Made by a program: the position numbers and the translations under genes. Under the pieces are notes generated by a model. It made no database searches and had not been told where the DNA came from. It worked only from the letters and a program-made list of their open reading frames with translations. Shown in pieces: positions 17,819 to 61,364 of a DNA stretch of 64,000 bases (within the stretch, counting starts at the first letter, position 1; every line of letters begins with the position of its first letter). Source of the DNA: an uncultured Bacteroidota bacterium (lineage in GTDB: Bacteria > Bacteroidota > Rhodothermia > Rhodothermales > DATKEJ01); assembly GCA_963768715.1 (NCBI GenBank), contig CAVYJC010000008.1, forward strand, positions 19,831 to 83,830, in the 5' to 3' direction.

Positions 17819-17821
17819 GGC

Positions 17822-18643: not shown

Positions 18644-18724
18644 GATAAAGGCGATGTGTTTGGTTTGGGGCCGAAATATAGGAAGAACAGAAGTCCGCCT
18701 CACTCGAACGAGTGATCCTCAGCC

Positions 18725-20453: not shown

Positions 20454-21844
20454 GTGCCGGTCAGCGATTTCGTAAAGTCGCTGATCTTCTGCTCGATCTC
20501 CTCCCATTCCCCCTCCGGTGTGGAACCCTCGACGATCCCCGCGCCGGCGTAGAGTGAGATTCGATTGCGTTCCACGAGGGCGCTCCGGATTCCGACGGCG
20601 AATTCCGACGCGTTGGCTCCGATCCATCCAACAGGACCTGCATACCAGCCCCGATCGAAGGGTTCGTGATGGGCGATGGCTTCCATCGCAACCTTCGTCG
20701 GCACGCCGCCCACGGCGGGCGTCGGATGCAGCGCGCGCATCAAGTCCGCATCCGAGACTTTGTCGGAGAGCATCCCCCACATGCTGGAGAAGAGATGCAT
20801 CCTTCGCGTCAGGAGCATGATCGACACCTCCTCATCCTGTTGGAAAGAAGTGCAGAGGGGCGCCATAGATGCCGCCACCGACTGGCGAACATAGTTGTGC
20901 TCGCGTCGGTCCTTTTCGCTTCGAAGCAACTGATCGATCAGGGCAGCATCGCCACTTGTCGTTTCGCCGCGTGGCCGCGTTCCGGCCACCGCTTCGGTAG
21001 CGATGTAGCGGCCCGACCGGGAAAGCAGGCGCTCAGGAGTCGCTCCGATGAAGGCGACGCCCCGTTCGGGCTGGAAGAGGAAATGATAGCAGTCACTCGT
21101 GATAGGGCGAATTCTGTCCAGAAGCAGGACCGGATCGAGTCGACTCGCAAAGGAGAGGATCGTCTTTCGCGCGAGAACGATCTTCTCGAGACGCTGCTCG
21201 TCAAAAGCACGAAGCGACCAATTTATGGACGATTCCCAGTGCTCGCGGTCGGGAATGTCCTCCCGCGAAAGGGGCATGTCGCCCGAGCCATCGAGGTTTG
21301 CCGCGACACCGGCGGAAAGCTCAGACAACTCGCGAAGTACGTCAGAAATTCTGTCCGAGTCTTCAGGAAACGCCAGATTGCATATGAGCCGGGTCGCATC
21401 ACCCTGACGCTGCAACTCGAACCGTGGCAGCCAGAAGCGGTATGCGCTGAATGGAGCCCACTCACGTGATACTTCGTGGTATCGGTCGAACCGAATACCG
21501 CCGAAGTAGCGAAGGTCGCCGGGGCCGGATCCAATCGACGAACGCAGTCTTTGAAGCACGGCGTTGTAGTCGATCGGGGCCTCTTTTGACACTGTGTCGG
21601 CATATCCGACACCAGCCACTTCGAGTCCGTCGTTGCGCCCCGCCCAGTAGATGCGGACGTCGGAGGCCTGCTGCTGCAGCCATACCAGGGGATCGATGTT
21701 AGGATGCGGCAGGCCGATGCGTACCAGCTGGGCCACGTCACCAGACCGTCCGTCTGTGCGGTGTGATGCCGCCGCGTCAACGATTTGCCTGCCCAATTCG
21801 GCGTGGACGTCGGTGACTGGGGCTGTTGTTAAGGAGCTTCGCAC
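20450..21844 (-). CDS. menF: isochorismate synthase
   Basis: Chorismate-binding C-terminal domain (GATPERLL, HPTPAVGG, YAGPVGW, GAGIV.GS.PE.E). Confidence 0.85.
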   Translation of the reverse strand: MRSSLTTAPVTDVHAELGRQIVDAAASHRTDGRSGDVAQLVRIGLPHPNIDPLVWLQQQASDVRIYWAGRNDGLEVAGVGYADTVSKEAPIDYNAVLQRLRSSIGSGPGDLRYFGGIRFDRYHEVSREWAPFSAYRFWLPRFELQRQGDATRLICNLAFPEDSDRISDVLRELSELSAGVAANLDGSGDMPLSREDIPDREHWESSINWSLRAFDEQRLEKIVLARKTILSFASRLDPVLLLDRIRPITSDCYHFLFQPERGVAFIGATPERLLSRSGRYIATEAVAGTRPRGETTSGDAALIDQLLRSEKDRREHNYVRQSVAASMAPLCTSFQQDEEVSIMLLTRRMHLFSSMWGMLSDKVSDADLMRALHPTPAVGGVPTKVAMEAIAHHEPFDRGWYAGPVGWIGANASEFAVGIRSALVERNRISLYAGAGIVEGSTPEGEWEEIEQKISDFTKSLTGT

Positions 21845-35101: not shown

Positions 35102-35734
35102 TCAGCGACGAAGAAAATCCTCGATCCTGAGGCTACTCTCGCACCACTCTACTTCCTGTGGTGAATTCGTAGCGAGAATGACAGCGGTACCGGAGGCCAC
35201 CTCCGACTTGATAATACCGCGCACCATGTCGACGCCGACGGCATCGAGGTTGGAGGAAGGCTCATCGAGGAGCAGAAGATCCGACCCGGCCGCGAGCGCT
35301 ACGGCGAAACGCGCGCGCTGCTTCATTCCCGAAGAAAACGTGCCGACCAGATCGTGTCCGCGATCACCGAGTGAAACACGGGTCATCAAATCGCCAACGG
35401 CTGAACCCCTGTAGGCCGATGCCCTCACACGGCTGACGAAACGGAGGTTTTCTTCGAGCGTGAGGCCATCGTAGAGCTGCAGGTAGGGCGCGACCAGCGC
35501 CACAGAGCGAGCTCGATCGTCATGGTGTACTTCGGCGCCGTTCGATTGGAGCGAGACGTTGCCCCTGGTCGGTGTCAGCACGCCGGCGAGAATCCGCACC
35601 AGTGTGGACTTGCCGCTCCCGTTGGCGCCTGTGACCGCCATGATCTGGCCCTGACCGAGCTCGAAAGAGAGATCTCGGAACAACCAGCGCGATCCGAATC
35701 GCATTGCAAGATTTGTGACCTGCAGTCGAGACAT
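35102..35734 (-). CDS. ABC transporter ATP-binding protein (CcmA-like), no adjacent permease
   Basis: Walker A GANGSGKST, signature FSSGMKQR, Walker B LLLLDEPSSNLD. Its ATG (35734) lies 1 nt after the TAG stop of the upstream T9SS cargo gene. Confidence 0.8.
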   Translation of the reverse strand: MSRLQVTNLAMRFGSRWLFRDLSFELGQGQIMAVTGANGSGKSTLVRILAGVLTPTRGNVSLQSNGAEVHHDDRARSVALVAPYLQLYDGLTLEENLRFVSRVRASAYRGSAVGDLMTRVSLGDRGHDLVGTFSSGMKQRARFAVALAAGSDLLLLDEPSSNLDAVGVDMVRGIIKSEVASGTAVILATNSPQEVEWCESSLRIEDFLRR

Positions 35735-35735
35735 G

Positions 35736-38700
35736 CTACGGAACTACGATGAGCTTACGCGACTTGTGATCGCCGCCTACTGTCAGCATGTAAATGTAGG
35801 TCCCTCCATGCAGACCGTTGACGTCGACTACAACCGAATGATATCCAGCCTCGAACGTGCCTGAGGCAAGCGTCTCGACCAGCCGCCCGGCGATGTCATA
35901 AAGATCGATTCGCGCTTGTGTCGTCGAAGGTACGGCGAATTGAATGTGAACCGTTCCGTGCGCCGGATTGGGGAAACTCTGGAACAAACCGATACTGTTT
36001 GGAGCCTCCTGACAGGCGTTGCCGACTCCGTCGAGATCGGCGTCGAGTTGATCTGAGTTGGGCACAAGCGGACAGTTGTCAGCGTCGTTTTCAACCCCGT
36101 CACCATCCCTGTCCAGATCGCACACGTCTCCTGTGCCGTCATTGTCGAAATCGGCCTGATCATCGTTTGCAACGTAGGGACAGTTGTCTAAGGCATTCGC
36201 CAGGAGATCGCCGTCGATGTCCGGATCGCAAGCATCTCCCAAGGAATCGTTGTCGACGTTCTCCTGACCCGGATTCTTCACCGCCGGGCAATTGTCCTGG
36301 TTGTCATCAATCGAGTCGCCGTCCGTATCGGGGTCGCAGGCATTGCCCGCGCCGTCTCCGTCATCGTCCGCCTGATCCGGATTCGCCACGAGGGGACAGT
36401 TGTCGGAGTCGTTCGCCAGCCCGTCGCCATCCGCGTCACTGTCGCATGCGTCGCCAGTTCCGTCGCCGTCTATATCGCTCTGGTCGGCATTGGCAATCAT
36501 CGGGCAATTGTCATTGATGTCGGTCACGCCGTCGCCGTCGATATCATCATCGCAAAGGTTTCCTATGCCATCCCCGTCGTCGTCCGCCTGGTCAAGGTTG
36601 GCCACAAGCGGGCAGTTGTCGACTTCATTCAGGATCGTATCACCGTCGATATCCGAATCACAGACATCGCCAAAAGCGTCATCATCGATGTTCCGCTGAT
36701 CGGCATTCGCGACGCCGGGACAGTTGTCTGAAGTATTGGGCACCCCGTCTCCATCGACGTCGGTATCGCAGACGTCCCCGATACCGTCGTTGTCCTGGTC
36801 GGCCTGATCGACGTTGGGAGTCCTCGGGCAGTTGTCCTCTGCGTCGTCGATGCCGTCCCCATCGACATCGAGGTCGCACACGTTGCCCCGACCGTCAAGG
36901 TCGTCATCGGCTTGATCCGGATTGGAGAGGTTGGGGCAATTGTCGACATCGTTCGCAACTCCGTCGTTGTCGATGTCGGGATCGCAAGCATCGCCCAGTC
37001 CGTCCGAATCTGTATCGAGCTGGTCCGGATTGGGAATGGCAGGACAATTGTCCGACGAATTGTCGACGAGATCGCCGTCGGCGTCGTTATCGCAAACGTC
37101 TCCGATACCGTCCCCATCGAGATCCTCCTGGCCGGGATTAAAGACGTAGGGACAGTTGTCCATATTGTTGACCAGACCGTCCCCGTCGGCCTCGTTGTCG
37201 CAGGCGTCCCCTGTGCCGTCCGAATCGGTGTCTGTCTGGTCAGGATTGGGTATGGTCGGACAATTATCCTTGCTGTCCTCGATTCCGTCGTCGTCAAGGT
37301 CCTCAAGGACTGGAATATTGTAGAAAGTGAGCAGGCCGATGCCGCGCGTATTGGCGACCCACGCGCCGCTCCCGCTGTGACCCAGGTACGAGATGCCCGT
37401 CGCAGCGGTCCCGTCGCCGGACAGCTGCATCACGACGGTCGGTCCATTCGCTCGTCCGCCGATTACCTTGACGGAGGTACCCTCAAGACGGAAGTAGTTT
37501 TCGGAGCCCGCCTCCCAGAGCATGGCGTCGTCCGGATCTCTGAATCGCAGCGTGACTTCGGAGCGAAGGGTATTCGTGAAGAGGGCCCGGTCGATATTGG
37601 GCGGGTCGATCTCGTCGGTATTGTTTGAGCCGTAGAAGTCGCGCATGACGAGGTGGAATGCCGTTTCACCGATATTCTCATAGCCGCGTTGATAGCTGAA
37701 GTGGCATCCGTCATGGCCGTTCAATCCCGTCGTGGAAATGACCTGGACGTCGGGGAAATTGTCCTCGAATCGTCGCTGCGTATCTCGAAGTTGAATGGAC
37801 GGCGTTCCGCAGCCCGCCCGGATTTGCATTACGTAAATCTTTTGGACTCCGGGATAGTCCTGGCGCAGATCGTTGTACAATGAGGCGAAGCGAGACTGAT
37901 AAACCGCGGGCGGTGTGTTCTGATCGGTGGACCCGTCGGCTTCGCCCTGATACCAGAATATGGCTCTTGCCGTCGCGGCCACGCCGGCCTTCTGGGCCCG
38001 GTAGAGCATCCGCCCGTAGGCCGTATTAAGGTCGGTGCGATTGCCATCGTTCCGCTCGAAATAGAGAATCTGCTCTCCGCCCACCGCCCCATTGATGACG
38101 TTGATAGCCACGCCTGTAGAGTCGAGCAGGAGCCGGGCCATGTGGATAGCCCACTGACCGATAAATCCTTTGCGCGCTCGATCGTCGCCCACGGCCACAT
38201 ACCACGTCAGGTCATTGGCCATATTTGCCGGCTCGGTGCTCACATTTCCGAACGTGCGGATGTTGTTGTCGACGTTTCCGTTCGCAGAGCCCGACCACAT
38301 CCAGGCAAGGGCATTCGACTGTCCGTACACGATGTACGTGTCGCCAACCATCAGTTGCGAAGCGGAATAGAGCACAGACTGGCCGCTGGAGCCCTCTCCA
38401 ACGAGCTCCAGGTCGTAGGGGGACACGCTTGCCGGTGCATCGGCCGTGATCGCGAATGGTATTTCACCCGTCTCGCGCGCTGAGGCGGAAACATCGAATT
38501 CGCGTGTCCTGATGACATTCGTTCCAGATTTGACACGCAGGACCAGGCGATCGACGGTATCGTCCTCGAGCGTGCCCTCAACCTTGAATTGGCCGAGATT
38601 GGTGGTCAGATCACGCGTGATGAATTGGCGGTCGGCCGGAGCCGTGCTAAGGGTTATGCGCGCCGTCTGGCCACGCGCCGTGAATGCCGCACATAACAGC

Positions 38701-38741
38701 ATGCAAACAGGAAGCATCCACAGGCGTACGATCTCCGTCAT
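35736..38741 (-). CDS. T9SS-secreted protein: sialate-O-acetylesterase-like domain, 12 thrombospondin type-3 repeats, Por/T9SS C-terminal sorting domain
   Basis: Start taken at ATG 38741 (signal peptide MTEIVRLWMLPVCMLLCAAFTARGQ). YGQSNA esterase-type motif. Twelve DNCP-containing calcium-binding repeats counted in the translation. C-terminus FPNPAHGTVHIQF...YIYMLTVGG..KSRKLIVV is a T9SS CTD. Confidence 0.75.
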   Translation of the reverse strand: MTEIVRLWMLPVCMLLCAAFTARGQTARITLSTAPADRQFITRDLTTNLGQFKVEGTLEDDTVDRLVLRVKSGTNVIRTREFDVSASARETGEIPFAITADAPASVSPYDLELVGEGSSGQSVLYSASQLMVGDTYIVYGQSNALAWMWSGSANGNVDNNIRTFGNVSTEPANMANDLTWYVAVGDDRARKGFIGQWAIHMARLLLDSTGVAINVINGAVGGEQILYFERNDGNRTDLNTAYGRMLYRAQKAGVAATARAIFWYQGEADGSTDQNTPPAVYQSRFASLYNDLRQDYPGVQKIYVMQIRAGCGTPSIQLRDTQRRFEDNFPDVQVISTTGLNGHDGCHFSYQRGYENIGETAFHLVMRDFYGSNNTDEIDPPNIDRALFTNTLRSEVTLRFRDPDDAMLWEAGSENYFRLEGTSVKVIGGRANGPTVVMQLSGDGTAATGISYLGHSGSGAWVANTRGIGLLTFYNIPVLEDLDDDGIEDSKDNCPTIPNPDQTDTDSDGTGDACDNEADGDGLVNNMDNCPYVFNPGQEDLDGDGIGDVCDNDADGDLVDNSSDNCPAIPNPDQLDTDSDGLGDACDPDIDNDGVANDVDNCPNLSNPDQADDDLDGRGNVCDLDVDGDGIDDAEDNCPRTPNVDQADQDNDGIGDVCDTDVDGDGVPNTSDNCPGVANADQRNIDDDAFGDVCDSDIDGDTILNEVDNCPLVANLDQADDDGDGIGNLCDDDIDGDGVTDINDNCPMIANADQSDIDGDGTGDACDSDADGDGLANDSDNCPLVANPDQADDDGDGAGNACDPDTDGDSIDDNQDNCPAVKNPGQENVDNDSLGDACDPDIDGDLLANALDNCPYVANDDQADFDNDGTGDVCDLDRDGDGVENDADNCPLVPNSDQLDADLDGVGNACQEAPNSIGLFQSFPNPAHGTVHIQFAVPSTTQARIDLYDIAGRLVETLASGTFEAGYHSVVVDVNGLHGGTYIYMLTVGGDHKSRKLIVVP
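36010..37330 (-). repeat. in-frame coding repeats (about 37-aa TSP type-3 units, x12)
   Basis: Periodic D.D.DG..D..DNCP...N.DQ.D pattern in the translation. Boundaries are approximate. Confidence 0.8.
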
Positions 38742-38900
38742 GGAAGACGGGAGCGAGCGTGATTCCGGGCGCAAGGGATTTTGTGTCGACAATTCGAAAC
38801 GCAGGAGGGTGGGGCTCCAAACTTGTTTCATTACGAAATTTCGGGGCGGAACTTACGAAGTTTTGATTGTACTCGCCGACTTATCCAGCCGTTTTTTGCC

Positions 38901-41278
38901 GTGGACTTGAGACAAGCATCTCACAACGATGAACTCGTACTCTTCGGGAAGGACCCGACTTCCAAGATCGTTGCTGTGCACGTACACCGCCTCCAGCCAT
39001 GACGTCCAGCCATCCGTCCGTATATATCGACGCGACACCTCAGGTGTCGTTGCCTCTGAAGAATTGCCCTTCTACCCGTTCTTCTTCGTTTCGGATCCTG
39101 CGGAAGTCCCCAATCTAGATTCTGAAGCCTTCAGCAAGCATCTTCTCGATGGGCCCAACCCGCTCCGCTGGCTTGTAATCGCCAAGACGCTCGACGCGTA
39201 TTGGTCAGGAGTTCGGGCCGTCAGGGCCAGGGAAAGTGCGTCGTCCGATTTTCGGTTTCATGTGATTGCGAGTCTCGAGGCTCAGTATCTGGTTCAGTCC
39301 GGCCGGACCCTCTTCAAGGAGATGTCGTTTTCCGAGCTGCACCGGCTTCAGTTCGATATCGAAGTGGCTGCGAGCCACGGGTTTCCGAACGCCCGACGGC
39401 CCGCAGATGAGGTCGTGATCATCTCGATGTGTGACAGCAGGGACTGGTCGTGCGTCCTCGACACGCGAAACGCCACGGAGGAGGACATTCTTCGTCGATT
39501 CGTCGAGATCATCCAGGAGCGCGATCCGGATGTGCTCGAGGGGCATAATGTGTACGGATTCGACATCCCGTATCTGCGCGAGCGGTGTGCGAGATATGGG
39601 ATTCCGTTTGCGATCGGAAGAGGGGGCATGGAGCCTCGATTTTTTAAGTCCAACATGCGTTTCGCCGAACGGCTGGTCGAATATGAAGTCTGCGAGATCC
39701 CCGGCCGCCACGTCGTCGACACGTACTTTCTGGCCCTCTCGTACGATGTGTTCAAGCGCGACTTGCCGAGCTATGGATTGAAGCAGGTGGCGTTGTATTT
39801 CGGGGTGGCGTCGGCAGACCGCGAGTATGTTCCGGGCGCCGAAATCGCGACGTATCTGGCGCGAGGATCCCGAGCGATTGCTCCGATACGCCCTTCACGA
39901 TGCTGAAGAGACGGGAAGAATCGCCGCCCTCTTGTCCGGATCAACGTTTTTCCTCTCCCAGATGCTTCCGATGAATTACGGCCATGCCGCAAGATCCGGG
40001 CCCGGGATGAAGATCGAGCTTCTCCTGGTTCGCGAGTATCTGCGCAATCGGCGAAGTCTCCCGACGGGCCAGCAGGGCACGCAGATGGAAGGCGGTTACA
40101 CCGACGTTTTCCTGACTGGTGTTATTGGACCCATCGTCTACGCCGACGTCGAGAGCCTCTATCCGTCCATCATGCTCCAGTATGAAATCCGTCCTCGCTC
40201 TGATGAGCTGCAGGTATTTACGCAGTTGCTCAGGCGCCTCACCAAATTGCGGCTCGAGACGAAGGAAGCCTTCCGTCAAGCATCTGACGAAAAGGAACGC
40301 GCCGAGTTGAATGCTCGACAGTCGTCCTTCAAGATTCTCATCAATAGTTTCTACGGGCTGCTGGGATTTGGGGCGGCTCTTTTCAACGATCCGGCCAAGG
40401 CGGATGCGGTGGCATCCCGTGGGCAGGAAATTCTGCGGACGATGATAGCGGCGATCGAATCGCGGAGTGGCACTGTGATCGAGGTTGACACCGACGGGGT
40501 GCTGTTTCGACCGCCATCCGACGTCGTCGGGGAAGAGGAGGAGCGAGCGTTTCTCGTGGAGGCAGCGGCCGATCTGCCCGAGGGGATCCGGGTAGGATTC
40601 GACGGCAGGTACCGCAAGATGCTGTCATACAAGAAGAAGAACTATGCGTTGCTGGCCTACGATGGGGATGTCGTCGTGAAGGGCTCATCCCTTGTTTCTC
40701 GATCCCTGGAGCCGTTCGGACGTCGATTCGTGAAGCGCGTCATCCGTCTTCTGCTCGAGGAAGATGTTTCGGGCGTTACATCGGGTTTTCTCGACGTGCG
40801 GGACGGAATCGTGAACCGAACCTGGTCTGTCGACGATTTCGCCCGAACCGAAACGCTCAAGACAAAGCCGGAGGCCTACGTCGACGCAGTGAAGGCCGGC
40901 AGGCGCCCGAGATCGGCTTTGTACGAGCTCGTCGTTCGGGAGCACCTGGAGCGTGAGCGGACGTTCAACCGAGGCGATCGCATCAGTTACTACATCGTCA
41001 GATCGGCAACGAGCGAGGGAATGATCGCCAGGTTGGCCGAGGATTGGGATCCAGCGTCGCCCGATGAAGACACATCGTACTATCTGCGACGGCTCGGCGA
41101 GTTTGCCGAGAAGTTCAGGCCGTTTTTCAGCGCGAGGTCGTTCGAAAGCGTCTTTCCGTCGGAAACCCACGGGCAGGGAAGCCTTTTCGCCGAGGAGTCG
41201 GAGGTACGACTCGTCGTCAAGCGCACCGGTAGTCACCTGCCTTCAGATTCCGACATCAGGCTCTTCGACTCAAAATGA
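38901..41278 (+). pseudogene. polB: family-B DNA polymerase (Pol II-like), at least two frame changes
   Basis: Exo I FDIEV, Exo II NVYGFDIPYL, Exo III YALHDAEET, pol motif A DVESLYPSIM, motif B KILINSFYG, motif C EVDTDGV, KKKNYA. The N-terminal DELVLFGKDPTSKIVAVHV is in a third frame (candidate GTG 38901). Frames switch near 38990 and near 39848. Track fragments are 38929..39906 and 39827..41278. Confidence 0.85.
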
Positions 41279-41312
41279 AAGGGCCCGGAAATGATATCAT
41301 CCCGAGCCCTTT
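41278..41312. terminator. bidirectional intrinsic-terminator-like hairpin between convergent polB and MIP genes
   Basis: aaagggc-c-cgg ... ccg-a-gcccttt: 10 bp with one mismatch and an A/T run on each side. It starts inside the polB stop codon. Confidence 0.55.
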
Positions 41313-41332
41313 CCAACCAGACGCATACAGGA

Positions 41333-41962
41333 TCAGCTTGTCTGACGCTTGTATACGACGGCTGCCAAGGCTCCTCCGGCGAAGGGGCCTATGAGGTAGA
41401 GGAGAATGTTCGCGAAGCTCGACACACCAAGCATGCCTCCGACGAGGATAGGGCCGAGGCCGATTGCGGGATTGAAAACACCTCCTGAAACATCACCGAC
41501 GGCGACGAAGCCGACCATGATTGCGAAACCGGTGGCGAGGCCGTAATAGGAATTTCCGGCCGTGGCGTCGTTGTAGTAGGTCTGCAGCACAGTCAATGCG
41601 AGGGCGAAGGTGAACAACAGCTCCGCCACGAATGCCTGCAGCGTCGTGATCCCGATGCCGGGAGCAGGTACGAAGGCTTCGTCGGCCAGCCAGAGAACGG
41701 CGAGTGCCGCCAGAATGGCGCCGGCGAGCTGAAACACCATATATCTGACCGCTTCACTCGACGAGATCTTGCCGCGGATCAGCACTGCCAGTGTGACGGC
41801 AGGGTTGTAGTGTGCGCCCGAAATGTGTGCTCCCATGTAGACCATCACCATGAGGACGCTGCCAATCGCCAGAGGCGCCAGATCGGAGCCACTGGCGACG
41901 CTCATTCCAAACGTCAACATGAGAAAGAATGTGCCGATGAGCTCAGTGAGATACTTGTTCAT
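41333..41962 (-). CDS. MIP-family channel (aquaporin/glycerol-facilitator-like)
   Basis: Two NPA boxes (SGAHYNPAVT, GGVFNPAIG) and six hydrophobic segments. Confidence 0.9.
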   Translation of the reverse strand: MNKYLTELIGTFFLMLTFGMSVASGSDLAPLAIGSVLMVMVYMGAHISGAHYNPAVTLAVLIRGKISSSEAVRYMVFQLAGAILAALAVLWLADEAFVPAPGIGITTLQAFVAELLFTFALALTVLQTYYNDATAGNSYYGLATGFAIMVGFVAVGDVSGGVFNPAIGLGPILVGGMLGVSSFANILLYLIGPFAGGALAAVVYKRQTS

Positions 41963-42038
41963 AGCCGGTAGAGATTAGATAGTGGCTGAGGTGATCCCGC
42001 AGTATAGCGGGCAGCAGCTACCGGCGCAATAGATCTGG

Positions 42039-42992
42039 CTATGTAGGCTGACCGCTGCCTCCTCGTCCGATCCCTTGCGTTGCGTCCAGGTCGTTGATCA
42101 GCTTCTGCGTGCGAATGCTCCGCCCCTCACGCCTCAAGTGATAGGCTGAATCGTACATGTCCTGCAATGGGAAGATGTAGTCCTCCGGTTTGGAGATAAT
42201 GGGGAATGCAAGGCCCTTGCGAAGCGTCTGATCCAACTCCCAGATCTGCTCTTTGTGACGTTCGAATTCTTGCTTGACCAGAGGCGGCCAGGTCAATAGA
42301 ACGCGGGCGCCCCGGCGGAGCGCAAATTCGTTGAAGTCGTTCAGCAGGTCGATCGACTCCTTGTGAAACGGCACGTTGTCTGGAAGCATCTGGTGCTCCT
42401 TGAAGGATGGCGCCGCGTCGAGATGGGTTACGATATCTCCATATTGATTAAATCCGCTTCGAGCGTAGACGGAGTCCTCGAGACCGACAGTTCCCTTTCG
42501 AAGGTATCCTGCGAACTTCAACTGCATGATCGGCGCAAACTTGGAGATGACTGTCTCCCATGCGCCCCATGATTTCAGGTTGGCCAAGCCTTCGGGGTAA
42601 TACTGGAGCTCCACGAGCAGTCCGTCAGATCCATAATAGAGCTCGTAGAAAAGCTCGTATTCTGGTGCGAGGATCACTATGTCGTCCTCGTCGATGTAGG
42701 GTTTGACCTCTTCCAGCATGTAGCCCAGGCCGACGCTCTTTGCAAGACCCATGTTTACGACGGGGAATCCAAACTTCTCGGAGAGCAGCTTCGAGTCCAT
42801 GCTGAACGCGAGGTTGGAACCGCCGACAAGGATGATCTTGGGAGACGGCGTTCGCTTCAGTATCTCGATCTTATCGAGCTTTGCGGCCTGATAGGCTTTC
42901 GGGTTGTTGGGTATCAATACCCAATTGATCAGGACGCACGTCGAAAGGATGAGTATGAGGAAGACGATGGTCTTTGCGATAGCCTTTCCCAT
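42039..42992 (-). CDS. membrane-anchored hypothetical protein, probable partner of the adjacent MBOAT acyltransferase
   Basis: N-terminal TM helix then a soluble domain (ILVGGSNLAFS..). Lies 7 nt downstream of the MBOAT gene. The DltD/AlgX-type role is inferred from position only. Confidence 0.4.
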   Translation of the reverse strand: MGKAIAKTIVFLILILSTCVLINWVLIPNNPKAYQAAKLDKIEILKRTPSPKIILVGGSNLAFSMDSKLLSEKFGFPVVNMGLAKSVGLGYMLEEVKPYIDEDDIVILAPEYELFYELYYGSDGLLVELQYYPEGLANLKSWGAWETVISKFAPIMQLKFAGYLRKGTVGLEDSVYARSGFNQYGDIVTHLDAAPSFKEHQMLPDNVPFHKESIDLLNDFNEFALRRGARVLLTWPPLVKQEFERHKEQIWELDQTLRKGLAFPIISKPEDYIFPLQDMYDSAYHLRREGRSIRTQKLINDLDATQGIGRGGSGQPT

Positions 42993-42999
42993 GCGTGCC

Positions 43000-44436
43000 C
43001 TAGAATTGGAAATAGATGAATGCCTGCTTCTGATTGATCACTCCGAAGAGAAGGATCGACATGGTAAACGCGTAGTACAGAACCCAGCGAACCAACGCGT
43101 GCTGCTTCCCAAGCAGCTGGTCAAAATGCTCCCTTCGCTCCAAAAGGTGCACGACCTCAAGGATAAGAATCGCACAGAAGGCCAACAACAGCTCGTAGCG
43201 GCCGAACACGGCCATCGTGATCTTCCAGCTGTCGAAGATGAACATCCGACGGACGAGCACGCCAACATCCTGTATCGAATTCGCGCGGAAGAAGATCCAC
43301 GAGAACAGGACCAGATGAAACGTCACCGCTACCGCAATCCATTGTCTGACCCGGGCGCGGATTCCGAGCCGGTGAAAGAGCCGACCGCGCAGGTCCGTCG
43401 TGGCCAGGCCGACGATCAAATACATCCCGTGCAGCGCCCCCCAAATGACGAAGGTCCAGTTCGCACCGTGCCAGAGGCCGCTGATCAGAAAGACGATGAA
43501 CAGATTATAGTACCATCGCCATTTCACGACCCTGTTGCCACCAAGCGGAATGTACAAGTAGTCTCGAAACCAGGTTGACAGCGATATATGCCACCGCCTC
43601 CAGAACTCGGCGATCGACTTCGAGAAGTACGGACGCCTGAAGTTTTCCATGAGATCGTACCCGAGGATCCTCGCCGAGCCGATGGCAATATCCGAGTAAC
43701 CTGAAAAGTCGCAGAAGATTTGAAAGGCGAAGAAATAGGTGGCGAGCACGATCGTCAGGCCGCTGTGATCACCCGGATGACTGTATACGGCGTTGACATA
43801 GGCTGCCAGCCGGTCGGCGATTACGAGCTTCTTGAAGAACCCCCAAAGCATAAGGCGCAGGCCGCCGATCGTTCGCTCGTAGGTGATCTCCCTTTTCTCG
43901 AGAAATTGGGGGAGGAGTTGCGTCGACCGCTCGATCGGCCCTGCAACCAGCTGTGGGAAGAAGGCCACATACAGTGCGAAAATACCGAGGTGCCGTTCGG
44001 CGTGCCGCTGGCCGCGGTAAACGTCAATGGTATAAGAGAGAGTCTGGAACGTATAGAACGAAATTCCTACAGGAAGAAGCACATGCAGGGCCGGGACGTC
44101 ATAGGGGACCTGGAAGGTCGCGAAGGCTATACGGAGCGACTCGTTAAAGAAATTGAAGTACTTGAACGAGAAGAGGATGCCCAGATTAGATACCAGGCTC
44201 AAGATCAGAAACAGGCGTCGCTTTTTCGGCTTGTCGGTGCCGTCCATCGCCAGCGCCGCGATGTAGTCGACCAGTGTGGACGCGATGATCAGAAGCAAGT
44301 ATTCAACACGCCAAGCGGCGTAAAAATAATAACTTGCTGCAAGTAGAAGTATCCATCTGAAGCGTGAAGGCGTGAGCAGATAGAGGCCTACGACAATCGG
44401 GAAGAACGCCAGAAAGTGGAGGGAATTGAAGAACAT
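43000..44436 (-). CDS. MBOAT-family O-acyltransferase (AlgI/DltB-like)
   Basis: 478-aa polytopic protein. Starts MFFNSLHFLAFFPIV, has FWRRWHISLSTWFRDYLYIPLGGNR, and the conserved His lies in SGLWHGANW. Confidence 0.9.
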   Translation of the reverse strand: MFFNSLHFLAFFPIVVGLYLLTPSRFRWILLLAASYYFYAAWRVEYLLLIIASTLVDYIAALAMDGTDKPKKRRLFLILSLVSNLGILFSFKYFNFFNESLRIAFATFQVPYDVPALHVLLPVGISFYTFQTLSYTIDVYRGQRHAERHLGIFALYVAFFPQLVAGPIERSTQLLPQFLEKREITYERTIGGLRLMLWGFFKKLVIADRLAAYVNAVYSHPGDHSGLTIVLATYFFAFQIFCDFSGYSDIAIGSARILGYDLMENFRRPYFSKSIAEFWRRWHISLSTWFRDYLYIPLGGNRVVKWRWYYNLFIVFLISGLWHGANWTFVIWGALHGMYLIVGLATTDLRGRLFHRLGIRARVRQWIAVAVTFHLVLFSWIFFRANSIQDVGVLVRRMFIFDSWKITMAVFGRYELLLAFCAILILEVVHLLERREHFDQLLGKQHALVRWVLYYAFTMSILLFGVINQKQAFIYFQF

Positions 44437-44480
44437 GCCGTCGGGCGTGTGGGCGGGTGGAGGTTGTTAGGTCGGGCGGG

Positions 44481-44993
44481 TCAGATTGAGGCGATCATAT
44501 CCGAGTAACTCGATGTGATCAGATCTTCGTCCTGCACGCCGAATCGTCTCATCCATTCGCGGCAGGAGGCGCGCATGCCGGCTTGATCTGCTGTATTGTT
44601 TTCGGCGATAACTTCGACTTCGACAAAACTGCCAAGGTCCGCAATGTCGTCGACGTGGATCTTCGCGTTGTCGTGAAAATAGATTTCACGCCGTTTCTTC
44701 ACGACGCAGCGTACGCCGAGGGCGACGGTAAGCAGTTCGAGCAGTTGCTCGGGTTCTGGACACGGGGCCAGCCAGACATCCGAGCGTTTGGGTGCTGCGG
44801 CGTCTTCGCGCCTGTAGAAGATCAGGTTTCTCTCCACATTTCCGCTTCGCAGCTTCAACCGGCCCGAGGGTACGTGAAAGTAGGTATCAGTCTGGTGATC
44901 GGTCACCGCAGGTTGGACCTCCATTTCCCGCAGCACCGCGCGAATTCGATCCGGTTCGGGGCATCGGGCCTTGAATTCGATGTTCAGTGGCAT
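44481..44993 (-). CDS. CYTH-domain protein / class IV adenylate cyclase-like
   Basis: Starts MPLNIEFKAR (the EXEXK motif). KLRSG..IFYRRED... and GSFVEVEV strands are typical of CyaB/CYTH. Confidence 0.75.
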   Translation of the reverse strand: MPLNIEFKARCPEPDRIRAVLREMEVQPAVTDHQTDTYFHVPSGRLKLRSGNVERNLIFYRREDAAAPKRSDVWLAPCPEPEQLLELLTVALGVRCVVKKRREIYFHDNAKIHVDDIADLGSFVEVEVIAENNTADQAGMRASCREWMRRFGVQDEDLITSSYSDMIASI

Positions 44994-45113: not shown

Positions 45114-45347
45114 ATGGCAGAAAGACGGGGCATGTTCATAAAGAACGTTTCCGATCATTCGGTTGATATCCGGATGAAGACGCGTACGTTGAAATTGTCA
45201 CCCGGTGACATCCAGATTATTACTGCCGAAGAAGTGCGGGACGCCGTTCTGCGCGAGCACTTGCAGGTACGTTCGGTGGCGATCGTTCGACCGGCAACCG
45301 CCGAAGAAGAGGAGGCATTTGTGAACGATACAGCTTCAGAGTCTTGA
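45114..45347 (+). CDS. small hypothetical protein (77 aa; 71 aa if ATG 45132)
   Basis: Only the part of ORF 44583..45347 that is not antisense to the CYTH gene. No recognisable motif. The coding call is tentative. Confidence 0.3.
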   Translation: MAERRGMFIKNVSDHSVDIRMKTRTLKLSPGDIQIITAEEVRDAVLREHLQVRSVAIVRPATAEEEEAFVNDTASES

Positions 45348-45402: not shown

Positions 45403-46557
45403 ATGAAGGTTCTCTCGCTCGAGCCGTACTACGGCGGCTCTCATCGGGCATTTCTCGAAGGACTGGACGCGCACAGCGCGCACGAAATTCAGTCCATCAC
45501 CATGACGGCACGCTTCTGGAAATGGCGAATGCAGGGTGGCGCCGTCACGCTGGCGCGAAAGGCCGAGCAGGCATGGAAGGACGGGTTTCGACCGGACCTG
45601 ATCTTTGCTTCCGACATGGTCAACCTGCCTGCGTTTCTCTCCCTGACGCGTGACATCTTTGCCAATACGCCGGTGATCCTCTTCTTCCATGAGAATCAGC
45701 TGACGTACCCGATGCGGGAAGGTGAGTCGCGAGACTTCACCTACGCCTATATCAACTATCTGAGCTGTCTCGTAGCCGATCACGTGGTGTTCAACTCCGA
45801 ATTTCACCACACCCAGTTTCTTGAGTCACTTCCTGAGTTGCTCCGGCTCTTCCCGGACTACACACACTTTCAGACGGTCCGTGGCATTGCTCGGAAGAGC
45901 AGCGTGCTGCATCTGGGGATCAAGCTTCGGGAGCACGATCGATTCTCAAAGGAGTATCCTCAGCCCAAGTGGGGGCCTGGAATGAAGCCGCCCGTGATTC
46001 TGTGGAATCAAAGATGGGAGTACGACAAGAATCCGACGGCGTTCTTTCGCCTGATGAATCGGCTGGACGACGTCGGCTGTCGCTTCCGGTTGATCCTGGC
46101 GGGTGAGCATTTTGAGGAACAGCCTGAGGAATTCAACCTGGCCTTTCAGCGATATGCCGACCGGATTCTCCACTATGGCTATGCGGAGGATTTTGAGGAA
46201 TACAGCCGTCTTCTGCATCGATCGAACATTATCGTTTCGACGTCGATCCACGAGTTTTTCGGCATCGCTATCATGGAAGCCATCTACTGCGGGTGTCATC
46301 CGCTGCTTCCGGACCGCCTCACCTACCCAGAGTTGATTCCCGAGCATCTCCATCGTCCGCTGCTTCATGCACCGGTGCTCTATGACTCGGAGGATGAGCT
46401 GTTCGAAATTCTGTCGTCGATTCTCAAGGGAGACCAGCGTCCGCTGCCATCCGAAACGCTCAGGGGGATCCCCGAACATCTCGACTGGAACAGGCACGCA
46501 GCCGAATTCGATGCGCTCTTCGAGTCGGTTGTCGCCGGACGCACCGTCACTTCATAG
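45403..46557 (+). CDS. DUF3524 plus GT1 glycosyltransferase, homolog of eukaryotic GTDC1/QTMAN (tRNA-queuosine mannosyltransferase family)
   Basis: Blocks EPYYGGSHRAFLEGL, FFHENQLTYP, RDFTYAYINYLSCLVADHVVFNSEFH, WNQRWEYDKNPTAFF and HEFFGIAIMEAIYCGCHPLLPDRLTYPELIP match my recollection of the human GTDC1 sequence almost block for block. Confidence 0.7.
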   Translation: MKVLSLEPYYGGSHRAFLEGLDAHSAHEIQSITMTARFWKWRMQGGAVTLARKAEQAWKDGFRPDLIFASDMVNLPAFLSLTRDIFANTPVILFFHENQLTYPMREGESRDFTYAYINYLSCLVADHVVFNSEFHHTQFLESLPELLRLFPDYTHFQTVRGIARKSSVLHLGIKLREHDRFSKEYPQPKWGPGMKPPVILWNQRWEYDKNPTAFFRLMNRLDDVGCRFRLILAGEHFEEQPEEFNLAFQRYADRILHYGYAEDFEEYSRLLHRSNIIVSTSIHEFFGIAIMEAIYCGCHPLLPDRLTYPELIPEHLHRPLLHAPVLYDSEDELFEILSSILKGDQRPLPSETLRGIPEHLDWNRHAAEFDALFESVVAGRTVTS

Positions 46558-46563
46558 AGGCGA

Positions 46564-47361
46564 CTAGAGACGTCCGAACATCTGGCGAAACCGAAGTTCC
46601 CAGACAATCAAGGCGGCCTCTTTGACGATAGAGCGATTCATTTTCGAAGTTCCCTCGACTCTTTCGGTGAAGACAATGGGAACCTCGACGATTGAAAATC
46701 CCTTCTTCCACGTTCGATAATGGAGCTCCACCTGAAACGAGTAGCCGTTCGACCTGATGCGTTCGAGGTCAACTCCCTCGAGAACACGACGATGGATGCA
46801 TTTGAAGCCGGCGGTGACGTCCCGGATCGGCATCCCGGTAATGAGTCGTGTGTACACGGAAGCGCCATACGACAAAATGAGTCTCGACAGTGGCCAGTTC
46901 ACGACACGAACACCGTCGCGGTATCGGGAGCCTATGGCCATGTCCGCTCCCTGTCGGACAGCATCCACGAGTCGGGGTAAGTCTGCGGGATCATGAGAAA
47001 AATCGGCGTCCATCTGGCAGATCAACTGGAATCCGAGCTCGATCGCTCTGCTGAATCCGGCGAGATAGGCGGTTCCGAGGCCGCCCTTCCCGTTTCTTTC
47101 GATCAGGTGAACGCGTCTTGGAAACCGCTCGTGCATCTGGCTCACGAGTCTCCCGGTGCCGTCCGGGGAGCCATCGTCAACCACGATCACCGTGTAGCTG
47201 CCCGCAATTGACAGGACGCTCTCGAGGATTGCGGTGATGTTTCGTGCCTCGTTGTAGGTAGGGATGACGACCACCACGTCGTTCGACTGGCCCGGCACGA
47301 ATCTGCGGCGGTCCTCTTCCTCAACAGGAGCGTCAATTGTATGATCGACGAGGCCGGTCAT
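46564..47361 (-). CDS. polyprenol-phosphate mannosyltransferase-like GT2 (Dpm1/PpmA-like)
   Basis: VVIPTYNEARNI, VVDDGSPDGTG, QMDADFSHDP and the C-terminal GYSFQVE block. Confidence 0.8.
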   Translation of the reverse strand: MTGLVDHTIDAPVEEEDRRRFVPGQSNDVVVVIPTYNEARNITAILESVLSIAGSYTVIVVDDGSPDGTGRLVSQMHERFPRRVHLIERNGKGGLGTAYLAGFSRAIELGFQLICQMDADFSHDPADLPRLVDAVRQGADMAIGSRYRDGVRVVNWPLSRLILSYGASVYTRLITGMPIRDVTAGFKCIHRRVLEGVDLERIRSNGYSFQVELHYRTWKKGFSIVEVPIVFTERVEGTSKMNRSIVKEAALIVWELRFRQMFGRL

Positions 47362-57939: not shown

Positions 57940-58392
57940 ATGAAGGTTACAGTTCGGCCACAACGCATTCGCACGATCGCCCTGCTATTGACGGGGGTGC
58001 TGCCGCTGGCTGCCCAGCCGGCTGCGCTCGCGGGCCAGCTTGCGACGTCGCGGTACGTAGATCGAATGGTCGGCGACCTGCCCGGCAAACTGTCGATCGA
58101 CGATCTCCTCCGGCTTCTTGATGAATCGTCGGATGCGGATGGGCGCGATGCTGACGCCCTGGGCCGCGACATGATATCCGTCCTTATTCAGTGCAGGCTT
58201 CTGTCGCTGTTTTCGGACACGGCGCTGCTCCAGGCGCCGGATCTGGACTCGAGGCCGGTCGCGATGGGGCCTTTGTCCATCGTCCATTCCGTATCCGTTC
58301 AGACTGTTGCAGTCGACCAGGCGGAGTATCCTGTCACGACGGAACGGCCGTCAAGGCGCAGGCTTAGTGACGAGCAGCCGCTCGGGCCGTAG
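57940..58392 (+). CDS. hypothetical secreted protein
   Basis: Start taken at ATG 57940 (signal-like MKVTVRPQRIRTIALLLTGVLPLAAQPAA). No recognisable domain. The coding call is tentative. Confidence 0.35.
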   Translation: MKVTVRPQRIRTIALLLTGVLPLAAQPAALAGQLATSRYVDRMVGDLPGKLSIDDLLRLLDESSDADGRDADALGRDMISVLIQCRLLSLFSDTALLQAPDLDSRPVAMGPLSIVHSVSVQTVAVDQAEYPVTTERPSRRRLSDEQPLGP

Positions 58393-58477
58393 CTATTCGA
58401 CGTTGCGTCTCTCAGGGCGACCGCACCTTCCGCGCGTCGCACGCCACCGATCCCCCAGTCACAAAGACTTAAGAATA

Positions 58478-60391
58478 ATGTTGCAAGGAAACGGACTTAA
58501 GGTCCTGACCGTCTCGTTCTTTCTGATTCTTTCGGGCTACTACCTGTACCCGACGATCAGCAACTACAGGATTCAGAAGAAGCTTGACTCCATGAGTCAA
58601 GAGGAAAAGGCCGCCTACAATCAGGAGAATTTCGGCCATATACAGTGGGTTCGCGAAAAGACTCTCAAATTGGGTCTCGACCTGCAGGGCGGCATGCTCG
58701 TCGTACTCGAAGTGCGGGTTGATCAGCTCGTTCGCGAGCTGGCGAACGACAAGGACGATGCATTTAGCGAAGTGATGACGGCGGCGCAGGCGAACGCCAC
58801 CGCTTCGACTGCGTCGTTTGTCGATGCGTTTGCCGAAGCCTTCACCAGTCGCGATCCGAATGCACGGCTTTCGCGCTATTTTCGTAACTCCGACAGAGGC
58901 ATTACCCGTCGTTCGACGAATTCCGAGGTGGTTGCCTACCTAAAAGAGGAGGCCAGCGGTGCCGTCGATCGAGCCGTCGAGATCATCCGTGATCGGGTTG
59001 ACCGCTTCGGTGTGACCGAACCGTCGATTCAAAAGCAGGGCACCAGGCGCATCATCGTCGAGCTTCCCGGTGTCGATGAGCCCGAACGGGTCCGAAAACT
59101 TCTTCGAGGTACCGCGCGACTCGAATTTCACCTGATGATCGACCCCCGTGAGATGGCGCCGTTCGTTCAGGCCGTGATCGACCACTACGAGGAATCAGCG
59201 GAGCCGGCCGATACGTCGGCACGCGTCCTCGACGGTCCGCCTCCGGCCGATTCGGCGGCAGCGGATACCGGGGCTTCCGATTCGACCTTCGACGTGGCCG
59301 AGCTCTTGGATCAGGAAAACGAGGACAAGGGCTCGACGAACAAGCTGCTCGACATTTTTAGACCTTACGGACAGGACGTCATCGTTGGTTCGGCCTTTGC
59401 CCAGGACACGGCGAAAGTGATGAAGATGCTGATGGCGCCTGAGGTGGCCAATCTTCTTCCGCGCGACGTCGAGATTCTGTGGACGGCAAATCCTGTCAAT
59501 ACAACCGAGGACGGCCACCAGGAGTTTTTTGCGCTGGGCGTGAGGAAGACGGTTGAGCTGACTGGAGACGTCATCACCGAGGCGACAGCCAACTTTGATC
59601 AGATCAGCAACCAACCGAAAGTCTCGATCACGATGAACTCGGACGGGGCCAGGACCTGGTCGAGGCTCACGGGCGCCAATGTTGGCAAGAAGATTGCCAT
59701 TGTGCTCGACAACGTGGTCTACTCGTATCCGAACGTGAATGAGAAGATCAGTGGCGGGCGTTCGGAGATATCCGGGCTCGATTCGTTTGAAGAGGCCAAA
59801 GACGTTGTAACCGTGCTCAAATCAGGGGCCTTGCCGGCGCCGGTCGACATTGAGGCCGAGGAGACGGTTGGGCCGAGTCTTGGCGCTGCCTCCATCCGCG
59901 CCGGTACGATTTCGCTGATTCTCGGATTGACGCTGGTAGTCGTCTTCATGATCATGTACTACCAGACTGCCGGTTTCGTAGCCGACCTGGCGTTGTTCCT
60001 CAACATCCTGTTTATCTTTGGAATCCTGGCCGGATTTCAGGCGACACTGACGCTCCCGGGTATTGCAGGTATCGTGTTGACCATCGGTATGGCTGTCGAT
60101 GCGAACGTACTCATCTTTGAACGAGTCCGTGAGGAACAAGCGACCGGGAAGACGCTCAAGGCGGCGATTTCCGGTGGGTATTCCAATGCCCTGAGCGCCA
60201 TCCTCGACGCCAATATTACCACGTTCCTCGTCGGAGCTATCCTCTACTCGTTCGGAAAGGGTCCCATTCAGGGATTCGCCGTGACCTTGATGGCGGGCAT
60301 CATCTCGTCACTGTTCACAGCGATCTTTGTCACGCGGATCGTCTTCGACTGGATGGTCGGCAAGCGACGAATGCACGTTTCCTACGGTTGA
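58478..60391 (+). CDS. secD: protein translocase subunit SecD
   Basis: ATG 58478. LGLDLQGG, a large periplasmic loop, and a C-terminal 6-TM core (GIAGIVLTIGMAVDANVLIFERVREE). Confidence 0.93.
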   Translation: MLQGNGLKVLTVSFFLILSGYYLYPTISNYRIQKKLDSMSQEEKAAYNQENFGHIQWVREKTLKLGLDLQGGMLVVLEVRVDQLVRELANDKDDAFSEVMTAAQANATASTASFVDAFAEAFTSRDPNARLSRYFRNSDRGITRRSTNSEVVAYLKEEASGAVDRAVEIIRDRVDRFGVTEPSIQKQGTRRIIVELPGVDEPERVRKLLRGTARLEFHLMIDPREMAPFVQAVIDHYEESAEPADTSARVLDGPPPADSAAADTGASDSTFDVAELLDQENEDKGSTNKLLDIFRPYGQDVIVGSAFAQDTAKVMKMLMAPEVANLLPRDVEILWTANPVNTTEDGHQEFFALGVRKTVELTGDVITEATANFDQISNQPKVSITMNSDGARTWSRLTGANVGKKIAIVLDNVVYSYPNVNEKISGGRSEISGLDSFEEAKDVVTVLKSGALPAPVDIEAEETVGPSLGAASIRAGTISLILGLTLVVVFMIMYYQTAGFVADLALFLNILFIFGILAGFQATLTLPGIAGIVLTIGMAVDANVLIFERVREEQATGKTLKAAISGGYSNALSAILDANITTFLVGAILYSFGKGPIQGFAVTLMAGIISSLFTAIFVTRIVFDWMVGKRRMHVSYG

Positions 60392-60449
60392 AAATCCGGC
60401 GACTGTTGCATGATGCGTTATCGCACATCGCCATACAGACATTACAGAC

Positions 60450-61364
60450 ATGCGCATATTTGAAAACGCCAACTACGGTTTCACCACGAACTGGACGAAG
60501 GCCTTCTTCTTCTCCGCCAGCCTCATCGTTATAAGTCTGGTCGGGCTCGTGACAAGAGGCATCACGCTGGGCATCGATTTCCTGGGTGGAAGCGAGTTCA
60601 TCATTCAGACCGCCACGCCGCTCGACGTGTCGGCAGTCAGGGGAGACTTGGAAGAATCGCTCGGGATGGCTCCCGAGGTGAAACTCTACGGATCTCCGAC
60701 CACGATTCTTGTACGTTCGGCCGTCGGCGGCGACATCAACGATATCGAATCGAAGGTCCTGCAGACAATCGCGTCCTCGTATCCTGATTCGAACCCGGAA
60801 ATCGAGAAGACAGATTCTGTTGGGCCTCGGTTTGCGGAGGACCTCAAGAGGGGGGCGTTCCTTTCGGTTCTGTTCGCCCTCGTGGTGATCTTCATCTACA
60901 TCATGGTTCGTTTCGAGTGGCGGTTCGGCGTGGGCGCCGTTGTCGCGCTCGCCCATGACGTCACGATTACGCTCGGGCTGTTCGCGCTGCTTCATGATCT
61001 TGTGCCGTTCTCACTGCAGATCGACCAGGCCATCATCGCTGCGTTTCTGACTATCGTCGGCTACTCGCTGAACGACACCGTGGTGGTATTCGACAGAATC
61101 AGGGAGTATGCCGCCGTGTTCAAGACCGAGGCGTATGAGGTCGTAGTAAACAAGTCGATCAACAGCACGCTGAGCCGAACTATCATCACCTCGGGCACGA
61201 CGCTCATCGTGATGGTAGTCCTCTTCGTGACTGGTGGAGAGGTCCTGCGCGGGTTTGCATTTGCTCTCATAGTTGGTATCTTGATCGGCACCTATTCATC
61301 CATTTTTGTGGCCGCTCCGGTTGTGCTTCAGTTGCGCTCAGCTGGTCGGAAGCAGTCTCGCTGA
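60450..61364 (+). CDS. secF: protein translocase subunit SecF
   Basis: LGIDFLGG.., and the TM core with AFLTIVGYSLNDTVVVFDRIRE. Confidence 0.93.
   Translation: MRIFENANYGFTTNWTKAFFFSASLIVISLVGLVTRGITLGIDFLGGSEFIIQTATPLDVSAVRGDLEESLGMAPEVKLYGSPTTILVRSAVGGDINDIESKVLQTIASSYPDSNPEIEKTDSVGPRFAEDLKRGAFLSVLFALVVIFIYIMVRFEWRFGVGAVVALAHDVTITLGLFALLHDLVPFSLQIDQAIIAAFLTIVGYSLNDTVVVFDRIREYAAVFKTEAYEVVVNKSINSTLSRTIITSGTTLIVMVVLFVTGGEVLRGFAFALIVGILIGTYSSIFVAAPVVLQLRSAGRKQSR

Follow-up and report, generated by a model that had tools for sequence, protein, structure and literature searches.

A bacterial member of the QTMAN/GTDC1 glycosyltransferase family in Rhodothermales, encoded next to a conserved 77-residue open reading frame

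Sugar-bearing forms of queuosine are known from the transfer RNA (tRNA) of animals, where the enzyme QTMAN (GTDC1) attaches alpha-mannose from guanosine diphosphate mannose (GDP-mannose) to queuosine-34 of vertebrate tRNA-Asp (Zhao et al. 2023, Cell, as described in papers that cite it). Mannosyl-queuosine (manQ) has also been found on tRNA-Tyr of the mosquito Aedes aegypti, and Diptera have QTMAN orthologues (PMC11705514). A compendium of 2020 treated manQ and galactosyl-queuosine (GalQ) as eukaryotic modifications that are not found in Bacteria (PMC7694415). Both are regarded as animal-specific, and their physiological purpose is still debated. Here, a bacterial gene is described whose product belongs to the same family as QTMAN. 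It lies in a stretch of 64,000 nucleotides from an uncultured Rhodothermales bacterium (contig CAVYJC010000008.1, positions 19,831 to 83,830), which is referred to as the window and to which all coordinates apply.

Bacteria synthesise queuosine themselves, and the enzyme GluQRS (YadB) glutamylates queuosine-34 of bacterial tRNA-Asp. Since its target in bacterial tRNA is the cyclopentenediol of queuosine-34, GluQRS would be a functional analogue of the protein described here, but it has an unrelated fold, being a truncated aminoacyl-tRNA synthetase, and its chemistry is different. The family to which the gene belongs has entries in Pfam, NCBI and UniRef already, and the gene is a further member of it. 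A first-pass annotation of the window, made from the DNA letters alone, knew of no characterised bacterial activity for this family, and indeed no published study of bacterial DUF3524/QTMAN members was found in the searchable literature, although Zhao et al. (2023) may comment on them. The gene and the two halves of its product are the following:

45403..46557, forward strand: QTMAN/GTDC1-family glycosyltransferase of 384 residues with a predicted retaining GT-B fold (ATG-start open reading frame, PF12038 and PF00534, AlphaFold2 model)
45406..45921, forward strand: N-terminal half, QTMAN_N, residues 2-173 (full-length PF12038 match), presumably the acceptor-binding half by analogy with other GT-B enzymes
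45964..46347, forward strand: C-terminal half, GT1-type and nucleotide-sugar-binding, residues 188-315 (PF00534 match)

The open reading frame begins with ATG and has the coordinates and length given by the first-pass annotation, and it is virtually certain that its product is a genuine, full-length member of the QTMAN/GTDC1 family. In Pfam, PF12038 matches residues 2-173 (E = 3.1e-62) with a score of 209.8 bits (cutoff 25), and the match extends over profile positions 1-168 of 168; this profile, previously DUF3524, is now called QTMAN_N, "tRNA-queuosine alpha-mannosyltransferase N-terminal". PF00534 (Glycos_transf_1) matches residues 188-315 with E = 9e-12. The two domains that had been proposed are therefore both present, but the view that one was fused to the other has to be corrected, because Glyco_trans_4_4 also matches residues 44-141 weakly in Pfam and the model of the whole protein is of GT-B type and resembles GT4/GT5 structures. 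PF12038 is specific to the family and represents one Rossmann-like half, the N-terminal one, of a single GT-B enzyme. All NCBIfam equivalog models score far below their cutoffs with the 384-residue protein, and no database record identical to it was found. The protein is mildly acidic, with an isoelectric point (pI) of 5.85 compared to a family median of 6.15.

For the comparison with vertebrate QTMAN, a sequence taken to be that of human GTDC1 was used as bait to retrieve a reference, and the retrieved database protein was then used in the alignments. This protein (P0121, 458 residues) is identical to the bait, and its neighbours at 96% identity are named tRNA-queuosine alpha-mannosyltransferase or GTDC1 and come from macaques and other monkeys. 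BLASTP aligns the window protein with P0121 at 35% identity over 181 residues of the N-terminal half (E = 7e-30) and at 37% identity over 144 residues of the C-terminal half (E = 1e-33), and with macaque QTMAN in one single alignment (E = 7e-55). Together with the whole-profile PF12038 match and the PF00534 match, the alignment of both halves to primate QTMAN bears out the full-length homology that had been proposed, and all of the sequence blocks quoted for it then are found in the alignment: YGGSH, FHENQL.YP, RDF.Y.Y...LSCLVAD.VVFNS.F, W..RWE.DK.P..FF and HEFFG.A..EA.YCGC.PL.P..L.YPE. Vertebrate QTMAN thus has the Pfam architecture PF12038 plus PF00534 and all family motifs in common with the window protein. 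The differences are a linker of about 100 residues which separates the halves in vertebrate QTMAN and is missing from the bacterial proteins, and a stretch of nine residues following YPE..P which only the bacterial proteins have. The overall identity of the window protein is 33-35% to vertebrate QTMAN, as against 38-54% to the homologues of other bacterial phyla. Judged by their sequences, animal QTMAN proteins seem to be normal members of one and the same family, if a little further removed.

Conservation between bacteria and vertebrates extends over both halves of the protein. The 95 invariant columns of an alignment of Rhodothermales and vertebrate sequences are distributed over the two halves, and 45 columns are still invariant among 76 sequences from many bacterial phyla and vertebrates. 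A conservation test was carried out on 266 bacterial and 36 vertebrate sequences, in which the core was defined as those positions conserved in at least 95% of the bacterial sequences and a position was counted as kept if it was identical in at least 90% of the vertebrate ones. By this measure, vertebrates keep 15 of the 18 core positions in the N-terminal half and 19 out of 19 in the C-terminal half. The invariant motifs of the N-terminal half that are specific to the family are G12-S13-H14, W39-x-W41-R42 (W39-K-W41-R42 in the window protein), H96-E97-N98-Q99 and F130-N131-S132. In GT-B enzymes, the N-terminal half usually holds the acceptor site and diverges when the acceptor changes. As this half is no less conserved than the donor half from bacteria to vertebrates, the acceptor chemistry may well have remained the same, which is the main argument for a role of the bacterial proteins in queuosine modification.

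An AlphaFold2 model of the 384-residue protein, built on 76 sequences, reached a mean predicted local distance difference test score (pLDDT) of 93.5 and a predicted template modelling score (pTM) of 0.92, and the fold predicted by it is the retaining GT-B fold. Foldseek found 406 PDB matches for this model at E <= 1e-3, with GlgM, archaeal glycogen synthase, sucrose-phosphate synthase, MshA and BshA at the top (template modelling (TM) scores of 0.64-0.70, about 15% identity). A solved structure of a true QTMAN-family member is absent from the PDB as judged by sequence, and by fold only generic GT-B enzymes were retrieved. With the GT4-type retaining enzymes MshA, BshA, GlgM and sucrose-phosphate synthase, the window protein has in common the fold of two Rossmann domains, the diphosphate-binding pair of arginine and lysine, and the E-x7-E motif; by contrast, the W-K-W-R and H-E-N-Q motifs belong to the QTMAN family only and define PF12038. 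R204 and K209 do not vary in any of the alignments, and E284-x7-E292 lies within HEFFGIAIMEA, with position 284 being aspartate in many bacteria. The secondary structure of the model shows no evident signal peptide or membrane segment. A retaining enzyme fits the formation of an alpha-mannoside from GDP-mannose by QTMAN, so that the predicted fold is consistent with QTMAN chemistry.

The family is widespread in bacteria, with more than 6,300 database relatives of the window protein at E <= 1e-5. The closest of these come from metagenome-assembled genomes of Rhodothermales and related Bacteroidota (66-92% identity); relatives are called "DUF3524 domain-containing protein" by NCBI and "tRNA-queuosine alpha-mannosyltransferase" by UniRef, the latter name having been transferred automatically. 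When 1.84 billion cluster representatives were searched exhaustively, 1,031 clusters (50% identity) were obtained at E <= 1e-30, nearly all with a length of 360-390 residues. Carriers identified by name include Desulfuromonas soudanensis (P0408, CP010802), which is cultured and has a complete genome, as well as Desulfuromonadales, Chloroflexota/Anaerolineae, Flavobacteriales, Spirochaetota and Latescibacterota. Rhodocaloribacter litoris (P0061) is another cultured carrier, whereas Escherichia coli, which makes queuosine, is not known to have a member. Among bacterial DUF3524 proteins the window protein is typical, being of equal length and architecture and 63-92% identical to the Rhodothermales members, and nothing essential differs in the more distant members from Desulfuromonadales, Chloroflexota, Flavobacteriales, Spirochaetota and Latescibacterota. 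When a collection of species-representative genomes was queried with the single protein, 80 loci were returned, all from Rhodothermales and with 63-75% identity. Copies on mobile elements were found neither among 72,556 plasmids nor among 50,697 phage records. An apparent Dus fusion in the database protein P0063 was discarded, as the PF01207 match is weak and nothing further emerges from the gene context.

In Rhodothermales the glycosyltransferase gene does not stand alone, as the 410-bp stretch preceding it contains a second, short gene on the same strand:

45114..45347, forward strand: conserved open reading frame of 77 residues, of no known family, directly upstream of the glycosyltransferase gene (tblastn conservation, codon-position entropy)

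The sequence of the 77-residue product is MAERRGMFIKNVSDHSVDIRMKTRTLKLSPGDIQIITAEEVRDAVLREHLQVRSVAIVRPATAEEEEAFVNDTASES. Of 81 loci searched by tblastn, 80 have this open reading frame immediately upstream of the glycosyltransferase gene and in the same orientation (E = 2e-26 to 5e-11); the 80 are 79 Rhodothermales genome loci plus L088, and the single miss, L072, has no upstream sequence. The reading frame is intact in all 80 loci and the entropies at the first, second and third codon positions are 0.99, 0.66 and 1.67. The open reading frame is truly coding. Its stop codon overlaps the start codon of the glycosyltransferase gene by 4 bp in 20 loci; the gap has a median of 9 bp and measures 55 bp in the window. 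Such a small gap or 4-bp overlap points to co-transcription and often to translational coupling. The linkage was also tested in reverse by a metagenome scan seeded with the 77-residue open reading frame alone, which led to 80 further loci, of which 69 had at least 150 bp of downstream sequence. The glycosyltransferase gene follows in 67 of these 69, and in one of the two apparent exceptions (L124), a poorly assembled locus, the pair was seen to be present on inspection, raising the count to 68/69. The other exception is real: at L095:513-740, on a very GC-rich contig, the 77-residue open reading frame occurs without the glycosyltransferase gene and is followed by a convergent open reading frame of 597 residues with a Walker A motif (P-loop). 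Overall, the pair is present in 148 of the 150 loci examined; with the uninformative locus set aside, this is 148 of 149.

The 77-residue protein has no match in Pfam, NCBIfam or the PDB in sequence searches. A model built from its single sequence (pLDDT 72.5, a moderate value) suggests four strands followed by a helix, a strand and a helix, and Foldseek found nothing significant with it (best E = 0.19). A profile search of 512 family proteins showed no case of a fusion between the two proteins. The Rhodothermales enzyme, encoded in a coupled pair, differs in this respect from the vertebrate one, as vertebrates lack the 77-residue protein, and no similar open reading frame was seen upstream of the gene in Anaerolineae or in another distant locus. 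Among the Rhodothermales loci, this open reading frame is the only strictly conserved partner of the glycosyltransferase gene. The linkage is a new observation, and none of the functional explanations discussed below accounts for it.

Other arrangements were seen outside Rhodothermales. At L085:6119-9131 and L087:4369-6250, both from one such lineage, the QTMAN-like gene is preceded on the same strand by the genes for a flavoprotein of HI0933 type and a small protein with an ABM (antibiotic biosynthesis monooxygenase-like) domain, and at L085 the genes overlap by 1-4 nt. These two proteins may represent a different, lineage-specific operon partner. An open reading frame of 187 residues without a Pfam match lies just downstream of the QTMAN-like gene, again on the same strand, at L086 and L087.

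On the strength of its sequence, the window protein would most likely function in the glycosylation of queuosine-34 in tRNA, for which we see about an even chance. The C-terminal half would bind a nucleotide sugar via the invariant R204 and K209 and via E/D284-x7-E292, with GDP-mannose as the donor sugar by homology, while the N-terminal half with its YGGSH, W-K-W-R and H-E-N-Q motifs would present the acceptor. A hydroxyl on the cyclopentenediol ring of queuosine-34, in a tRNA with a GUN anticodon, would then receive the sugar, whose configuration would be retained. The enzyme would be cytoplasmic and its locus a two-gene unit, in which the gene for the 77-residue protein precedes that for the 384-residue glycosyltransferase; in Rhodothermales, the small protein would be made together with the enzyme, probably as a partner for specificity, stability or regulation. 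Queuosine-tRNA as the acceptor, the nature of the donor sugar and any role of the 77-residue protein are what we infer from the data.

Apart from the conservation of the N-terminal half, several observations speak for queuosine-34 as the target. Vertebrates and Aedes, both with QTMAN orthologues, are documented to carry manQ at position 34. The nearest solved structures are those of retaining GT-B enzymes with soluble acceptors, and copies on plasmids or phages are missing from the collections searched. In distant lineages, represented by seven contigs (Desulfuromonas, Flavobacteriales, Anaerolineae and four others), the gene is solitary amid unrelated genes and never lies within a glycan-synthesis cluster. 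Such a solitary position is typical of tRNA-modification genes.

A number of points have to be set against this function. Genes for queuosine synthesis (tgt, queA, queG) or tRNA genes are neighbours in none of the 80 Rhodothermales loci and none of eight distant-lineage loci, and the 64-kb window itself contains no queuosine-pathway gene (tgt, queA, queG/queH) and no tRNA gene. The genes secD and secF at 58307..61364 on the forward strand are not preceded by queA-tgt-yajC, so that tgt is not at the place expected by analogy with Escherichia coli, where these three genes precede secD-secF. As tRNA-modification genes are commonly scattered and unlinked, the lack of linkage is weak negative evidence. 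Neither vertebrates nor other bacterial phyla have a counterpart of the 77-residue partner, which could hint at a role confined to the lineage. As stated above, the glycosyltransferase is mildly acidic, without an obvious global charge for nucleic-acid binding, although charge is uninformative on RNA binding. A transfer of function between domains of life at 35% identity is not safe. ManQ, the product of vertebrate QTMAN, has not been reported in bacteria, and the activity, donor and tRNA target of the window protein are predictions. The compendium of 2020 likewise puts ManQ and GalQ down as not found in Bacteria (PMC7694415), but the model bacteria behind such compendia may lack the family.

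The main rival to queuosine-tRNA is a soluble small molecule as the acceptor, such as free queuine, queuosine, a 7-deazaguanine precursor, a cyclitol or another metabolite, in which case the tRNA activity of the vertebrate enzyme would be a later specialisation. We consider this rather unlikely but a serious contender. The closest solved structures (GlgM, MshA, BshA, sucrose-phosphate synthase) are of enzymes that use small soluble acceptors; at about 15% identity and a TM score of about 0.7, however, these matches show a shared fold only. The mild acidity of the protein, the absence of linked tRNA or queuosine genes from the loci examined and the fact that glycosylated queuosine is unreported in bacteria would also suit a small molecule. 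By contrast, the 15 of 18 core positions of the N-terminal half that are kept in vertebrates argue for the same acceptor chemistry, and the biosynthetic genes of a metabolite pathway are not linked to the gene in any of the distant lineages examined.

A further alternative, raised in the first-pass annotation because of the neighbouring genes, is that the protein is a glycosyltransferase for an envelope glycan or glycolipid which works together with an adjacent GT2 enzyme and a pair of genes around an MBOAT acyltransferase. The neighbours that matter for this proposal, together with the adjoining features, are:

46564..47361, reverse strand: GT2, polyprenyl-phosphate sugar synthase-like, convergent to the glycosyltransferase gene (best NCBIfam matches AglJ, PpgS, ArnC)
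43000..44436, reverse strand: MBOAT/DltB-like acyltransferase, about 1 kb from the glycosyltransferase gene
42039..42992: partner gene of the MBOAT gene, no family match
35102..35734: CcmA-like ABC ATPase, the usual divergent neighbour
35736..38831: protein of 1031 residues sorted by the type IX secretion system, with 12 thrombospondin type-3 repeats and a SASA esterase domain
38929..39906 and 39827..41278, forward strand: exonuclease half and polymerase half of a family-B DNA polymerase (PolB), in different frames with an overlap of 80 nt

The GT2 and MBOAT genes that had been named as neighbours do exist, and the matches of the former to polyprenyl-phosphate sugar synthases, the proximity of the latter and the automatic annotation of relatives by JGI as "glycosyltransferase involved in cell wall biosynthesis" are what an envelope function has in its favour, although the JGI name is a generic label. 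The context does not hold up in related genomes. The MBOAT gene, its partner and the gene for the thrombospondin-repeat/esterase protein occur in none of the 80 related Rhodothermales loci. Sufficient downstream sequence is available for 65 loci, and in none of them is the GT2 gene next to the glycosyltransferase gene: 31 lack it, and 31 others have it at a distance of 0.3-6 kb, with the opposite strand being used wherever it is present. What usually lies downstream is a gene for isocitrate dehydrogenase (23 loci), a PRA-PH/MazG-like protein (14 loci) or another GT4 enzyme (3 loci). The window is also unusual on the upstream side, where the CcmA-like ABC ATPase gene lies directly upstream in 63 of the 80 related loci. 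Here, a block of about 9.3 kb (35736..44993) stands between the glycosyltransferase locus and ccmA, which comprises the genes for the thrombospondin/SASA protein, a split PolB, an aquaporin, the pair of the no-family gene and MBOAT, and a CYTH/CyaB-like protein. The CYTH gene is found in two and the aquaporin gene in one of the 80 related loci, and the block is not wholly lineage-specific, as 16-19 of these loci also have the PolB halves upstream. Together with the solitary position of the gene in the seven distant lineages, outside any glycan cluster, and a model without an apparent signal peptide or membrane segment, this makes an envelope function improbable.

The least probable explanation, to which we give very little weight, is another nucleic-acid target, i.e. 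a hydroxyl-bearing modified base of tRNA or ribosomal RNA or a 7-deazaguanine derivative in DNA: the tRNA target already varies among animals, from tRNA-Asp in vertebrates to tRNA-Tyr in the mosquito, so that substrate choice in the family is flexible, but neither DNA-modification genes of the dpd type nor restriction systems are linked to the gene in the 80 Rhodothermales and the distant loci, and the phage and plasmid collections, where DNA hypermodification genes are common, hold no copies.

Returning to queuosine-34 as the acceptor, a broader proposal can be made, namely that many bacterial phyla make glycosylated queuosine by means of this family, that animal QTMAN is of bacterial descent, and that the Rhodothermales enzyme acts with a translationally coupled 77-residue partner. 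Taken as a whole, this is a tentative picture that falls somewhat short of probable. If true, the inventory of bacterial tRNA modifications would need revision and it would be clear where animal QTMAN comes from. The biochemistry would become accessible via small, thermostable proteins that are readily expressed in bacteria, with the compact enzyme occurring in cultured organisms, and the 77-residue partner would offer a new handle on the targeting or regulation of the enzyme. If, on the other hand, the acceptor is not queuosine, the large DUF3524 family is mislabelled through the automatic transfer of names in UniRef.

Several other features of the window concern the quality and the nature of the DNA itself. 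The two PolB halves listed above are in one frame in all 18 related loci that have both, which indicates a frameshift in the window and hence a pseudogene or an assembly error. A similar break is seen in the gene for LptD:

2411..4312 and 4275..5081, forward strand: LptD, apparently split (LptD_2 profile positions 1-406 and 399-464)
14446..21844, reverse strand: menaquinone cluster with a MenE-like AMP-binding enzyme, a MenC-like enzyme, a MenB-like enoyl-CoA hydratase, a MenD-like thiamine pyrophosphate enzyme and a MenF-like chorismate-binding enzyme

Two essential-looking genes, polB and the gene for LptD, being broken in one window is a hint of indel errors in the assembly. MenD, with open reading frames at 18725..19630 and 19386..20780, is maybe a third split gene. 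The menaquinone cluster is an ordinary housekeeping context, which indicates that the window is chromosomal.

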